From a virus (Duplodnaviria; Heunggongvirae; Uroviricota; Caudoviricetes), in the IMG/VR virus record IMGVR_UViG_2534681675_000022: a stretch of 11,637 bases of DNA; one strand, 5' to 3'. Each line of letters opens with the position of its first letter. Positions within the stretch are counted from its first letter, which is position 1. The position numbers were made by a program, and so were the translations under genes. The notes below the pieces were generated by a model. The model worked only from the letters and a program-made list of their open reading frames with translations, was not told the DNA's origin and made no database searches. Shown piece by piece: positions 1 to 11,005 of the stretch.

Positions 1-1218
1 ATGAACAAACTGAGCGATACCTTGCTAAGGAAACTTCATGGTAAGCCAGCGGAGAAAAACACGTTTTATAGCGATGGCGGAAATCTGAGCGTGAAATATT
101 TAACATCAGGGAAATTAACCTGGTATTTCACTTACAGGGCAGGAACGGGAAGAGAGACACGACCGGAACGTATTAAGCTGGGAAATTATCCTGATCTGAG
201 CCTGAAAGCAGCCAGGGAAAAAGCCGCCCAGTGTCGCGCATGGCTGGCGGAGGGGAAAAATCCACGCCATGAGATGAATTACGCCGTACAGGAAGCGTTA
301 AAGCCGGTAACGGTTGGCGATGCGCTCACCTACTGGCTTGAGTCGTATGTAAAGGAAAACCGCGTGGATTATATCGCCCTGAAAAGGCGACTTAATAATC
401 ACGTAATACAGTACATTGGCGCTATGCCGCTGGATAAATGCGAGCTACGGCACTGGCTGGCCTGTTTTGACCAGGTGGCAAAGCGAACACCTGTTACTGC
501 CGGATTCGTGCTACAGACATGCAAGCAGGCGCTTAAGTTCTGCCGGAGGCGGCGCTTTGCAATCAGCAACGTTCTCGATGATCTGAACGTGGCGGACGTT
601 GGGAAAAAACCGGATATAAGCGAACGTGTCTTAAGCACCAAAGAACTGGGCGAGTTATTGCAGGCGCTGGATAAAAAAATATTTTCTCCTTACTACGTCG
701 CGTTAATCCGCCTCCTGATTGTCTTCGGAGCCAGGACGGTAGAACTGAGGTTATCGGAGATCAGCGAGTGGGATTTTACCGAAATGCTATGGACCGTTCC
801 GAAGGAGCACAGCAAAACGAAGGTTGCAATATTCCGGCCCATACCGGAAGCGATCCTGCCGTTCGTCACGCGGCTGGTGGACCAGAACAGGCACACGGGC
901 TTATTACTGGGGGAAGTGAAACAGGAGGCTAGCGTATCGCAGTACGGCAGATTAGCGCACAGGAGGCTAAAACACCCTCAATGGTCATTGCATGACATCC
1001 GGCGCACCTTTACAACCATGCTGAACGATTTAGGCGTTGATCCTCACGTCGTGGAGCAGCTTACAGGCCACCAGATGCCAGGAATGCAACGCGTGTACAA
1101 CCATTCCCGCTATATTGATGCGAAACGCAATGCGCTTGATATGTGGGTGGAGCGGTTGGAGATACTGGCGGGAACACATGAAAACGTAACCACGCTACCA
1201 GTAACCAGAATAAAATAA
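1..1218 (+). CDS. int: Tyrosine integrase, P4-like (N-terminal arm-type DNA-binding domain plus C-terminal catalytic domain)
   Basis: 405-aa ORF. N-terminus (KLSDTLLRKL...FYSDGGNLSVKY...WYFTYR...IKLGNYPDLSLKAAREKA) fits the arm-binding domain pattern of P4-family integrases; C-terminus has H-x-x-R (LHDIRRTF) and a catalytic Tyr context (VYNHSRY). Judged by motif, not by search. Confidence 0.9.
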   Translation: MNKLSDTLLRKLHGKPAEKNTFYSDGGNLSVKYLTSGKLTWYFTYRAGTGRETRPERIKLGNYPDLSLKAAREKAAQCRAWLAEGKNPRHEMNYAVQEALKPVTVGDALTYWLESYVKENRVDYIALKRRLNNHVIQYIGAMPLDKCELRHWLACFDQVAKRTPVTAGFVLQTCKQALKFCRRRRFAISNVLDDLNVADVGKKPDISERVLSTKELGELLQALDKKIFSPYYVALIRLLIVFGARTVELRLSEISEWDFTEMLWTVPKEHSKTKVAIFRPIPEAILPFVTRLVDQNRHTGLLLGEVKQEASVSQYGRLAHRRLKHPQWSLHDIRRTFTTMLNDLGVDPHVVEQLTGHQMPGMQRVYNHSRYIDAKRNALDMWVERLEILAGTHENVTTLPVTRIK

Positions 1219-9516: not shown

Positions 9517-9542
9517 CAGGCCGGAGAAATCCGGCTTTTTTT
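9517..9542 (+). terminator. Intrinsic terminator after the capsid operon, abutting cos
   Basis: GCCGGA gaaa TCCGGC followed by eight T residues; near-duplicate of the 7251-7273 terminator. Confidence 0.75.
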
Positions 9543-9610
9543 ACGGGTCCTTTCCGGCATATGGACCCGTTACGGGGCGGCGACCTCGCGCGTTTTCGCT
9601 ATTTATGAGC
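9543..9610 (+). other. Lambda-type cos site A: cosQ-side flank, cosN (12-nt cohesive end GGGCGGCGACCT at 9575-9586) and first ~24 bp of the cosB side
   Basis: ACGGGTCCTTTCCGG...GTTACG GGGCGGCGACCT CGCGCGTTTTCGCTATTTATGA is almost base-for-base the lambda right-end/left-end junction as I recall it; similarity ends after TTTATGA. Confidence 0.75.
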
Positions 9611-9719
9611 CTTTTCAGGGGGGTGGTGGTGGTTTTGTTGTTTGCTCTATCTTTATGAATGAAAAGGGAAAGATGCAAACAATACACCAACCTGAAGCAG
9701 TAATTAAGTTGGTGTATTA

Positions 9720-10262
9720 ATGAAATCGCACCTGATGAACAAAAAAAACATGGCGAAAAGCTGCCGTGTAAGTGCGACAGCGTTCGACAAGTGGGGAGTG
9801 ACTCCCGTTGAACGTAAAGGCCGTGAGGCGTTTTATGATGTTGCCAGCGTGATAGACAATAGGGTTAACAATGCAATTAGCCAGCTTACAAACGACAAAG
9901 GCGATATTGATGATGATGAACTCTTACGAGTCAGGATCAGATTACTGACAGCACAGGCGGAGGCGCAGGAACTTAAAAACGAGCGCGATCGCGGTGACGT
10001 GATTGATACTGAGTTTTGCCTGTACGCGCTTTCAAAGCTGGCGAGTCAGATTTCATCAATCATGGACAGCCTCCCGCTTACTATGCAAAGGAGCTTCCCA
10101 CAGATTACCCCCGCCATGCTGGACAGGCTTAAAAGGGAAGTGGTTAAAGCCTGTAATGCCAGTGCCAGAGTTGCCGACAACCTCCCACAGATACTGGCTG
10201 ATTACTTGAAAGAAACAACCGGAAACGTACCGGAAAAGTTGCTACAGAAGAAAGGCAAGTAA
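9720..10262 (+). CDS. Terminase small subunit, lambda Nu1 family
   Basis: 180-aa ORF. C-terminal two-thirds align with lambda Nu1: LLTAQAEAQELKNERD vs LTRAQADAQELKNARD; FCLYALSKLASQISSIMDSLPLTMQRSFPQ vs FCTFVLSRIAGEIASILDGLPLSVQRRFPE; LKREVVKACN vs LKRDIIKAMN. N-terminal wHTH region is recognisable (NKK..., YDVASVI vs YDSAAVI) but divergent in the recognition-helix region. Start could be 9720, 9735 or 9750. Confidence 0.85.
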   Translation: MKSHLMNKKNMAKSCRVSATAFDKWGVTPVERKGREAFYDVASVIDNRVNNAISQLTNDKGDIDDDELLRVRIRLLTAQAEAQELKNERDRGDVIDTEFCLYALSKLASQISSIMDSLPLTMQRSFPQITPAMLDRLKREVVKACNASARVADNLPQILADYLKETTGNVPEKLLQKKGK

Positions 10263-10288
10263 CAGAAGCGCAATTATTGAACAAAAAT

Positions 10289-10490
10289 GAGAAAGGATCT
10301 GATAATGGCATTTTCTGGCTAAAATGCCTCGTGTCAGATCCTTTCTTTTTTTAATATTTTCATTGTTAAACAGTCTGTTACAGAGAAGAAGAACGGATCT
10401 GACTTTTGCCGGAAAATTTTCATAAACAGATAAAAACCGCGAGGTCGCCGCCCCGTAACGGGCCATAATTCCAGGAAGGACCCGACGACA
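10289..10490 (-). other. Lambda-type cos site B in inverted orientation: cosQ-side flank, cosN (10442-10453) and a full cosB-like region with three R-like repeats
   Basis: Minus strand reads CGGGTCCTTCCTGGAATTATGGCCCGTTACG GGGCGGCGACCT CGCGGTTTTTATCTGTTTATGAAAATTTTCCGG ...CCGTTCTTCTTC..., tracking lambda cos for more than 100 bp. Core GGATCTGA/TCAGATCC at 10294-10301, 10333-10340 and 10395-10402 sits where lambda has CGTTTCC/GGAAACG, in the same orientation pattern. The inner 13-bp inverted repeat (10289-10301 / 10333-10345) plus T-run also looks like a terminator for terS. Confidence 0.75.
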
Positions 10491-10517: not shown

Positions 10518-10799
10518 ATGACAGAAGCCGAACTACTGCGATTAATCCGCCGCGTTACCGGAATCAGCCAGCAGCATGACGAACAGGGCACGCAACCGGA
10601 CAGCGTGACCGCTGAAAATTATGCGCGTGTTGTTGCTGAGGTGATGCGCCGTGATGGTATTGAGCTTAACGGCGTGGATATGCGCAACATACGAACCAGA
10701 GTCCTTGAGTTGCTGGCATACCGTCGCCGCGTGGAGATGTATCGGGAGAAGGAGAAAATCACGTACCACTGGAAGAAGCCGGAACGGTTGCGGCGGTAA
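10518..10799 (+). CDS. Hypothetical protein (93 aa) just outside cos B
   Basis: ATG 10518 after GATGGGGG; Arg-rich helical-looking protein; no recognisable family. Confidence 0.4.
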   Translation: MTEAELLRLIRRVTGISQQHDEQGTQPDSVTAENYARVVAEVMRRDGIELNGVDMRNIRTRVLELLAYRRRVEMYREKEKITYHWKKPERLRR

Positions 10800-10882
10800 C
10801 TCACTGAGATTAAAGCAAAGCTCAAAATTGCGCTGGCTGAATGATCATTATGATTACTTATGTTTACGCAGATGATTAAGGC
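10789..10882. repeat. Direct repeat, copy 1 (~90 bp), overlapping the 3' end of the 93-aa ORF
   Basis: GGCGGTAACT...TTAAAGCAAAGC[TG]CAAAATTGCGCTGGCTGAAT[GA]ATCATTATGATTAC...GCAGATGATTAAGG; copy 1 has an extra TTATGTT relative to copy 2. Confidence 0.6.
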
Positions 10883-10922: not shown

Positions 10923-11005
10923 CTGGCGGTAACTGGTTGAACTTAAAGCAAAGCGCAAAATTGCGCTGGCTGAATAATCATTATGATTACGCAGATGATT
11001 AAGGA
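10923..11005. repeat. Direct repeat, copy 2 (~83 bp)
   Basis: Same unit as 10789-10882. Contains the AGCGCAA aa TTGCGCT hairpin and the ATCATTATGAT palindrome. Confidence 0.6.

Follow-up and report, generated by a model that had tools for sequence, protein, structure and literature searches.

An inverted repeat in front of the terS gene of an Escherichia coli phage satellite as probable R2 and R1-like docking sites for a satellite-encoded small terminase

The window analysed here is a stretch of 11,637 nucleotides from the IMG/VR record IMGVR_UViG_2534681675_000022 (Caudoviricetes), and it is 100% identical to the tqsA-inserted island of Escherichia coli 2014C-4587. The island genes encode an integrase, a helix-turn-helix (HTH) regulator, a primase, a single-stranded DNA-binding protein, a gpE-like major capsid protein, a gpD-like decoration protein, a 138-amino-acid protein, the small terminase subunit TerS and a 93-amino-acid open reading frame (ORF). 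The window is a phage-inducible chromosomal island (PICI) of the EcCICFT073 family of E. coli, with a full-length Nu1-type terS in place of rpp. Two cos sites flank this gene, site A upstream and site B downstream. Our subject is a perfect inverted repeat in site A, directly in front of the terS start codon. Offsets are counted from the first cohesive-end base of cosN A, position 9575, as +1.

In the repeat search, the left arm AATACACCAAC (9681-9691) pairs with the right arm GTTGGTGTATT (9708-9718) over 11 of 11 bp with a 16-nt spacer, and a single nucleotide separates the right arm from the terS ATG at 9720. An earlier reading of the window, made from the letters and their ORFs (the sequence-only reading), had reported a 9-bp inverted pair at 9683-9716. 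This pair is present, and its 9-mers are the inner portion of the longer perfect repeat; the exact 9-mer is confined to the two arm positions in the window. Inverted repeats of 9 bp are expected 1.8 times per dinucleotide-shuffled window and are alone not significant, whereas a perfect 11-bp inverted repeat with a loop of at most 40 nt is expected 0.11 times, with at least one in 8% of the shuffles. The repeat is thus non-trivial because its true length is 11 bp and not 9 bp.

The left arm lies at +107..117 and the right arm at +134..144 from cosN A. The sequence-only reading had placed the pair at the distance at which lambda has R2 and R1. The left arm indeed coincides with lambda R2 (about +104..119), but the right arm lies about 20 bp nearer to cosN than lambda R1 (about +153..168). 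The similarity to lambda, which was thought to end after about 24 bp, extends to about +34 to +45. The elements of site A (9624-9718) all fall between cosN (9575-9586) and the terS ATG, which is the placement of a lambda-type cosB (5' of terS and no more than about 200 bp past cosN), and a homologue of the lambda cosQ region precedes both cosN copies. The most conserved of these elements, an R3-like block at 9624-9642 in the position of a lambda-type R3 (about bp 48-65 from the cohesive end), was missing from the sequence-only reading.

The closest relatives of site A, at both the DNA and the protein level, are the cosB sites of the N15/Monarch type. Over +1 to +120, site A can be aligned gap-free with N15 and with the cos sites of two prophages, L027 and L028. 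L027 is a lambdoid prophage with terS-terL from O55:H7 DEC5D, and in a BLAST comparison its cos matches window positions 9540-9693, spanning cosQ to just past the left arm, with 78% identity (E = 4e-24). Both prophages carry three boxes with the core GGTTGTTGT, one at +51, one at +107 in inverted orientation and one further downstream. In N15 GGTTGTTGT is R3, as defined by block mutations at bp 48-59 (PMC4669245), and three R boxes together with a site for the integration host factor (IHF) form the cosB layout of the "Monarch group" (Feiss et al. 2015, PMC4669245), to which both prophages and the proposed anatomy of site A correspond. The island sequence GGTGGTGGT at +51..59 occupies the columns in which N15 and the Monarch-type prophages have GGTTGTTGT, and the left arm AATACACCAACC aligns with the inverted R2 of L027 and L028, AATACAACAACC, with a 1-nt difference. 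The homology to this group is thus detectable in both cos and TerS (78% DNA identity through R2; 46% TerS identity to N15 gp1), but the island does not carry the group's R core: its R3-like box has GGTGGTGGT, and its R2-like and R1-like boxes have GGTTGGTGT. The differences are T-to-G changes, two in R3 and one in R2. The island further differs from the N15/Monarch type in that its R1-like box is far nearer to R2 and variable, and in that the carrier is a satellite and not a phage.

The orientation and spacing of the boxes point in the same direction. The left arm forms inverted matches with both the R3-like block (18 nt, 78%) and the right arm (11 nt, 100%), and this double pattern of R2 against R3 and R2 against R1 recurs in L027 and at site B; the R2/R1 inverted repeat is also present in lambda and phage 21. 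The centres of R3 and R2 are about 56 bp apart at site A and 54-57 bp apart in lambda, 21, site B and L027. Between the two boxes, the conserved TATC...TGAWT columns agree with the core of the IHF consensus, although the site as a whole matches it poorly, with 3 mismatches. As in lambda and 21, the cosB follows cosN and precedes an adjacent Nu1-family TerS gene, with R3 at about +50..65, a forward-reverse-forward orientation of the boxes, an R3-R2 distance of 54-57 bp and the R2/R1 inverted repeat. In contrast to lambda and 21, the sequence of the R boxes is unrelated (GGTGGTGGT and GGTTGGTGT in the island, CGTTTCC in lambda and CATGTCGG in 21), the match to the IHF consensus is weak, and terS is not followed by terL. 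This cosB was absent from 50,697 phage records, where BLASTN searches with site A plus terS and with the L027 cos returned matches to cosQ-cosN only. The sequence-only reading had asked whether any lambdoid helper in the same genome uses ACACCAAC-type R sites; BLASTN and TBLASTN searches of the phage records, which did not cover the prophages of that genome, found no lambdoid phage with such sites.

Table 1. Features of site A, terS and site B in the window, with offsets counted from the first base of the cohesive end of cosN A
Feature	Positions	Strand	Remarks
Terminator-like hairpin and T-run	9518..9543	+	After the 138-amino-acid gene, directly 5' of the site A cosQ; terminator scan
cosQ-region homologue of site A, GGGTCCTTTCCGG	9545..9557	+	Alignment with lambda right end
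cosN A cohesive end, GGGCGGCGACCT	9575..9586	+	+1..+12
Invariant block, CGCTATTTATGAG	9597..9609	+	+23..+35; common to lambda, 21 and N15
R3-like element, TGGTGGTGGTTTTGTTGTT	9624..9642	+	+50..+68; core GGTGGTGGT = (GGT)3 at +51..59
Weak IHF-like site, TATC....TGAWT conserved	9648..9660	-	+74..+86; I1 position in lambda, 21, site B and L027
Left arm, R2-like element, AATACACCAACC	9681..9692	-	+107..+118; inverted relative to the R3-like block
Right arm, R1-like copy, GTTGGTGTATT	9708..9718	+	+134..+144; orientation as the R3-like block
terS, Nu1-family small terminase subunit, 180 amino acids	9720..10262	+	Pfam PF07471, PHROG 57
cosB of site B, CAGATCC[G/T]TTCT-type boxes	10287..10401	-	R1 10287-10302, R2 10332-10347, R3 10386-10401
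cosN B (10442-10453) and cosQ-region homologue (10471-10483)	10442..10483	-	Inverted relative to site A

Conservation was followed over 113 loci with an island-clade terS, drawn from E. coli genomes, IMG/VR, metagenomes, Enterobacter, Citrobacter, Kosakonia and Superficieibacter; the profile search of genome contigs with the TerS alignment yielded 6 loci only. Aligned from cosN onwards, 22 diverse site A sequences have no gaps up to +118 other than a 3-nt change within the GGT run. Conserved among them are cosN, the segment +23..35, the R3-like block in the form CTGGTGGTGGT(T/G)TTGTTGTT, TATC....TGAWT at +74..86, and AATACACC(A/C)AC at +107..118, which covers the left arm. The same picture emerges from 61 distinct haplotypes found in 96 E. 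coli-type loci. Here the R3-like block has a minor-haplotype fraction of 0.016 (8 of 19 positions variable) and the left arm has the same value (1 of 11 positions variable), compared with 0.10-0.11 in the spacers. Among relatives with the same TerS, the R3-like and R2-like boxes are therefore conserved and the R1-like box is not.

The right arm exists in at least seven versions in E. coli islands, namely GTTGGTGTATT, GTGGGGATATT, GTTGTGGTATC, GTTGGGATATT, GTGGGGGTATT, GTGTGGGTATT and GTGGGTGTATT, the last of which (locus L033) equals the Enterobacter-type R2. All seven match the reverse complement of the left arm at 8 to 11 of 11 positions, and all keep a GG-containing Shine-Dalgarno sequence, which in the window is probably the GGTG at 9711-9714, inside the arm and 5 nt in front of the ATG. 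The perfect version is the commonest: of 5426 complete E. coli genomes, 472 have it, Nissle 1917 and O157:H7 among them, and 128 have GTGGGGATATT. In Nissle 1917 (H186, NZ_CP022686.1 947341-947400), 60 nt with the perfect repeat and the terS start are identical to window positions 9672-9731. The cohesive end of site A is also polymorphic among homologous islands (L006, L007, L019, L026, L033 and L041-L044), being GGGCGGCGACCT, GGGCGTCGACCT, GGGCGGCAGACT, GGGCGTCAGGCG or AGGCGGCAGCGT next to an invariant +23..35 block, and this polymorphism may track different helper terminases.

The protein encoded next to the repeat belongs to the Nu1 family (PF07471, E = 2.3e-23; PHROG 57) and is 38% identical to lambda Nu1 over its whole length, including the C-terminus. 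The best TBLASTN match in the phage records is N15 gp1, and no TerS in these records is more than 46% identical to that of the island. A phmmer search against PDB sequences found nothing at E <= 0.01, RppC included. The start of the protein, MKSHL.NKKNMA, is conserved in homologues. An N-terminal winged HTH is predicted, with helix 2 at about residues 19-24 (ATAFDK), and in the AlphaFold2 model the order of the elements over residues 5-54, strand-helix-helix-strand-strand-helix, is that of a winged HTH. At the C-terminus, P156 and Y162 are invariant with lambda Nu1, so that this region appears compatible with binding to a lambda-like large terminase subunit, TerL. No terL-sized ORF follows the island-clade terS in about 115 loci. 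The recognition helix reads RVSATAFDKW in the island and ISVQAFDKW in N15, L027 and L028; its first residue is T in the islands and Q in the phage-type proteins, whose R boxes differ from those of the islands by the T-to-G changes. Among the islands, VSAT in place of VG(V/L)T goes together with a G-to-T change at +60 of the R3-like block. Such covariation of helix and R box is suggestive only, as a possible mark of changed specificity.

Site B is a textbook lambda-like cos, separate from and inverted to site A and with different R boxes: on the minus strand, R3 CAGATCCGTTCTTCTT, R2 AAGAAAGGATCTGACA (inverted) and R1 TCAGATCCTTTCTCAT follow one another at lambda-like distances. Its cosB was found in no phage record, the best partial matches being PhiR5_1, SerU-LTIIb and Gifsy-1. 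About half of the TerS-type islands have the inverted cosN 3' of terS and the others, for example L024-L026, do not, so that site A is the only cos in roughly half of them and seems indispensable there. The proposal of the sequence-only reading that one island carries two cosB specificities is borne out at the level of the predicted boxes, with the R3-like/R2-like set at site A and the unrelated CAGATCC[G/T]TTCT set at site B. Its related suggestion that the inverted pair itself is a second TerS recognition set fits the left arm, a conserved R2-like element that is homologous in position to the N15/Monarch cosB and lies next to the island TerS; the two arms are not equivalent, since the right arm is variable and is absent outside E. 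coli islands. In the O157:H7 island L022 (1505-1545), the cosQ flank at site A reads GGGTCCTTCCTGGAATTATGGCCCGTTAC, a sequence that the window has in the corresponding flank of site B (10454-10490); this suggests gene conversion or exchange between the inverted cos copies.

Taken together, we consider it probable that the repeat represents R2 and R1-like docking sites for TerS in a lambda-type cosQ-cosN-cosB of a PICI that encodes its own TerS. Judged by position and sequence, the left arm is a putative conserved R2, the homologue of the R2 box. The right arm looks like a labile R1-like copy, derived from an R box and under relaxed constraint, which is perfect only in the lineage of the window. 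A role of this arm as R1 is plausible but weakly supported, because no other segment varies as much and islands outside E. coli lack it. On this reading the perfect inverted repeat is an ordinary consequence of the cosB design: as in lambda, 21 and site B, one recognition sequence stands at R2 and, in the opposite orientation, at R1. The repeat is a new sequence version of the known lambda/N15-Monarch arrangement.

Several observations weigh against this assignment. In the 61 haplotypes the right arm has a minor-haplotype fraction of 0.151, with 6 of 11 positions variable, and it is missing from the islands of Enterobacter, Citrobacter, Kosakonia and Superficieibacter, unlike the R1 of true phages. 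It is 27 bp away from R2 and 1 nt away from the start codon, whereas R1 and R2 are 43-80 bp apart in lambda, 21 and L027 (43-49 bp in lambda and 21, where 20-24 nt separate R1 from the ATG). The IHF-like site has 3 mismatches to WATCAANNNNTTR, whereas the corresponding sites of lambda, 21, site B, L027 and the island L016 have 1-2. The similarity between the R3-like and R2-like boxes is only about 65-78%, and their register is ambiguous because of the GGT run. The TerS model has a low confidence (pLDDT, the predicted local distance difference test score, of 56.7), and the correlations between TerS helix and R box each rest on essentially one evolutionary split. Finally, what the sequence shows is architecture, box spacing, homology, conservation and the identity of TerS; binding by TerS, bending by IHF, recruitment of TerL and the direction and use of site A are inferred from it.

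The variability of the right arm can also be explained by a functional left arm (R2) next to a right arm that is a fast-evolving spacer and ribosome-binding site, complementary to R2 by drift or by quasi-palindrome template switching, so that the pair as such does nothing. This would account for a right arm that is more variable than neutral-looking spacers (0.151 against 0.10-0.11), for the G/T-rich composition and the GG-containing Shine-Dalgarno sequence of all seven variants, and for its absence outside E. coli islands. We regard this as unlikely, because TerS would hardly fail to bind an exact 11-bp copy of its recognition core if it binds R2, and because the variants are at least 8/11 identical to the R2 core, compared with 25% by chance, which suggests descent from or maintenance of an R box. 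That chance is expected to yield only 0.11 perfect 11-bp inverted repeats per window also speaks against drift. A dimeric transcription factor, either an AlpA-type or other HTH protein of the island or a regulator of the helper, might instead use the palindrome as an operator at a terS promoter. A perfect palindromic pair directly 5' of a gene would suit such a role, and the terminator-like hairpin at 9518-9543 suggests that terS might need its own promoter. However, a scan of 9590-9720 for sigma-70-like promoters found none, leaving no promoter for an operator to act on; the half-sites are not conserved together, their centres are 27 bp or about 2.6 helical turns apart and so face different sides of the DNA, and the right-arm variant is independent of the type of upstream gene (AlpA-like HTH or 137/138-amino-acid protein). 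An operator is therefore very improbable. An intrinsic terminator was rejected, as the terminator scan does not report the repeat and the stem is followed by AAUGAAAUCG without a U-run.

The sequence-only reading had also considered a hairpin that occludes the ribosome-binding site of terS, and in this lineage such a structure is plausible. The CACC of the left arm, an anti-Shine-Dalgarno mimic, pairs with the GGUG Shine-Dalgarno sequence (9711-9714) of the right arm, which is held in the 11-bp stem, and the AUG begins 2 nt past the stem. In its 81-nt context the RNA folds with -19.5 kcal/mol, compared with -10.1 +/- 2.7 kcal/mol for shuffles (z = -3.45), and 0 of 200 shuffles were as good. 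Compared with the likely older GTGGGTGTATT, the right arm of the window carries one change, which restores pairing with the E. coli-type left arm, and the hairpin-forming version is the commonest one in complete genomes. The structure is, however, not kept in sister islands: it is gone or weak in the haplotypes L004 (-6.7 kcal/mol) and L025 (-7.1 kcal/mol), which are no better than shuffles, and in L023 (-11.1 kcal/mol), and none of the six other right-arm variants is matched by a compensating change in the left arm, which is invariant. Islands that lack a right arm still conserve the left arm, so pairing cannot explain its conservation, and the hairpin potential comes free with cosB, as the R2/R1 inverted repeats of lambda and 21 also lie 5' of Nu1. 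An Rfam scan of the whole window found no family. That the arms were selected as an mRNA hairpin which throttles or conditions TerS translation in this lineage is thus quite unlikely. With the arms as R2 and R1-like sites, a perfect R1-like copy necessarily makes an mRNA hairpin too, as the right arm carries the terS Shine-Dalgarno sequence; the hairpin is lineage-specific and probably secondary, a side effect that may lower TerS translation in this lineage.

The sister island L003 places the packaging region of the window in the context of the Rpp-type islands. It has common flanks, but an rpp gene (RppC 6hlk, E = 4e-32) replaces terS, and the ATG of this gene lies at bp 102 from cosN, the position published for the gene start in cos-PICIs (PMC9026076). 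On either side the two islands are 91-99% identical, as far as +42 in site A and again from +45 in site B. The exchanged block comprises window positions 9617-10408, with cosB-A, terS and cosB-B between the inverted cosN copies, against L003 3218-3881, with a different cosB, rpp and a 21-like cosB (ATGTCCGG boxes). From this comparison, the block between the inverted cosQ-cosN copies looks like a swappable cassette for packaging specificity. At L003 3226-3238 (+51..63), ACCACCACC at +55..63, the core of the proposed R3-PICI, is the exact reverse complement of GGTGGTGGT. A derivation of the Rpp-type cosB of L003 by deletion, keeping the TerS-type R2, is unsupported, as the local alignment of the two cosB regions scored no better than shuffles, and common descent of the two is not established by it.

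The window shares with the Rpp-type EcCICFT073 PICIs (Fillol-Salom 2018, 2019; Murialdo & Feiss 2022) a PICI-specific cos directly 5' of the specificity gene, as at the Rpp-type cos1, and a second, inverted cos downstream. It differs in this gene, a 180-amino-acid Nu1-family TerS with a conserved C-terminal region, whereas Rpp has about 135-153 amino acids, the RppC fold and no TerL-binding C-terminus. It also has R3-like and R2-like boxes, with or without an R1-like box, over about 145 bp, whereas a single R3-PICI, with the gene at bp 102, has been proposed for the Rpp islands. A heterodimer with the helper TerS would be unnecessary in TerS-type islands. The redirecting logic proposed for the island TerS is the same as that of the Staphylococcus aureus pathogenicity islands (SaPIs), in which a satellite TerS together with the helper large terminase diverts packaging to a satellite-specific signal (PMC6092414). 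SaPIs use headful packaging from a SaPI-specific pac site, a TerS of an unrelated fold family and Gram-positive hosts, whereas the island uses cos with defined cohesive ends.

Some further observations concern related islands and the rest of the window. In the Enterobacter and Citrobacter islands L012-L018 and L034, the order is capsid, decoration, AlpA-like HTH, cos and terS, followed by a truncated Phage_cap_E gene and by FI and FII genes, which places these islands inside the major capsid gene of a lambdoid prophage; they fit the published "helper-embedded satellites" (bioRxiv 10.1101/2022.07.18.500453). The 93-amino-acid ORF of the window is conserved and belongs to PHROG 1561 (unknown function). 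Downstream of it lies a direct repeat of about 90 nt (10792-10881 and 10925-11004, 81% identical), which is also found in sister islands. The window contains two other perfect inverted repeats, one of about 14 bp (7282-7295/7308-7321) in the intergenic region after ssb and one of about 12 bp (1405-1416/1422-1433) after int, which possibly serve as origin, operator or terminator.

If the arms are R2 and R1-like docking sites, packaging of the island could proceed as follows. After induction by a lambdoid helper, dimers of the island TerS would bind the R3-like and R2-like boxes on either side of a bend at +74..86, perhaps introduced by IHF, and in this lineage the R1-like box would add a further TerS site. 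The conserved C-terminal region of TerS would then recruit the helper TerL, positioned to nick cosN A, so that concatemers of the island and not the helper DNA would be packaged rightwards from site A, until the next correctly oriented cosQ-cosN A in the concatemer ends packaging. Site B would be read by a helper-type TerS; by the rules known for lambda, motors that start at A would not terminate there.

In a broader and more speculative proposal, which we hold to be possible though doubtful as a whole, the TerS-type EcCICFT073 islands would represent a third strategy of cos hijacking beside Rpp and the capsid-forming PICIs. They would combine a private TerS with a private three-box cosB that is a few T-to-G changes away from N15/Monarch and so unread by known phage TerS proteins; cosB-A and terS, with or without the inverted helper-type cosB-B, would be swapped as a cassette between inverted cosQ-cosN copies, and the perfect R1 of the Nissle and O157 islands would double as a hairpin that limits TerS translation.

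The repeat itself is of modest interest and matters more as a handle on the specificity of satellite packaging. If the reading as TerS docking sites is true, these islands, found in at least 767 of the 5426 complete genomes, including Nissle 1917 and O157:H7, would need no Rpp; with TerS and cosB of their own, they would have to borrow no more than TerL, proheads and tails. The trio of specificities, GGTTGTTGT in N15/Monarch, GGTGGTGG/GGTTGGTGT in E. coli islands and GTGGGTGT in the Enterobacter type, would then offer a way to learn how a Nu1-type winged helix reads R boxes, and would explain how satellite DNA is discriminated from helper DNA.

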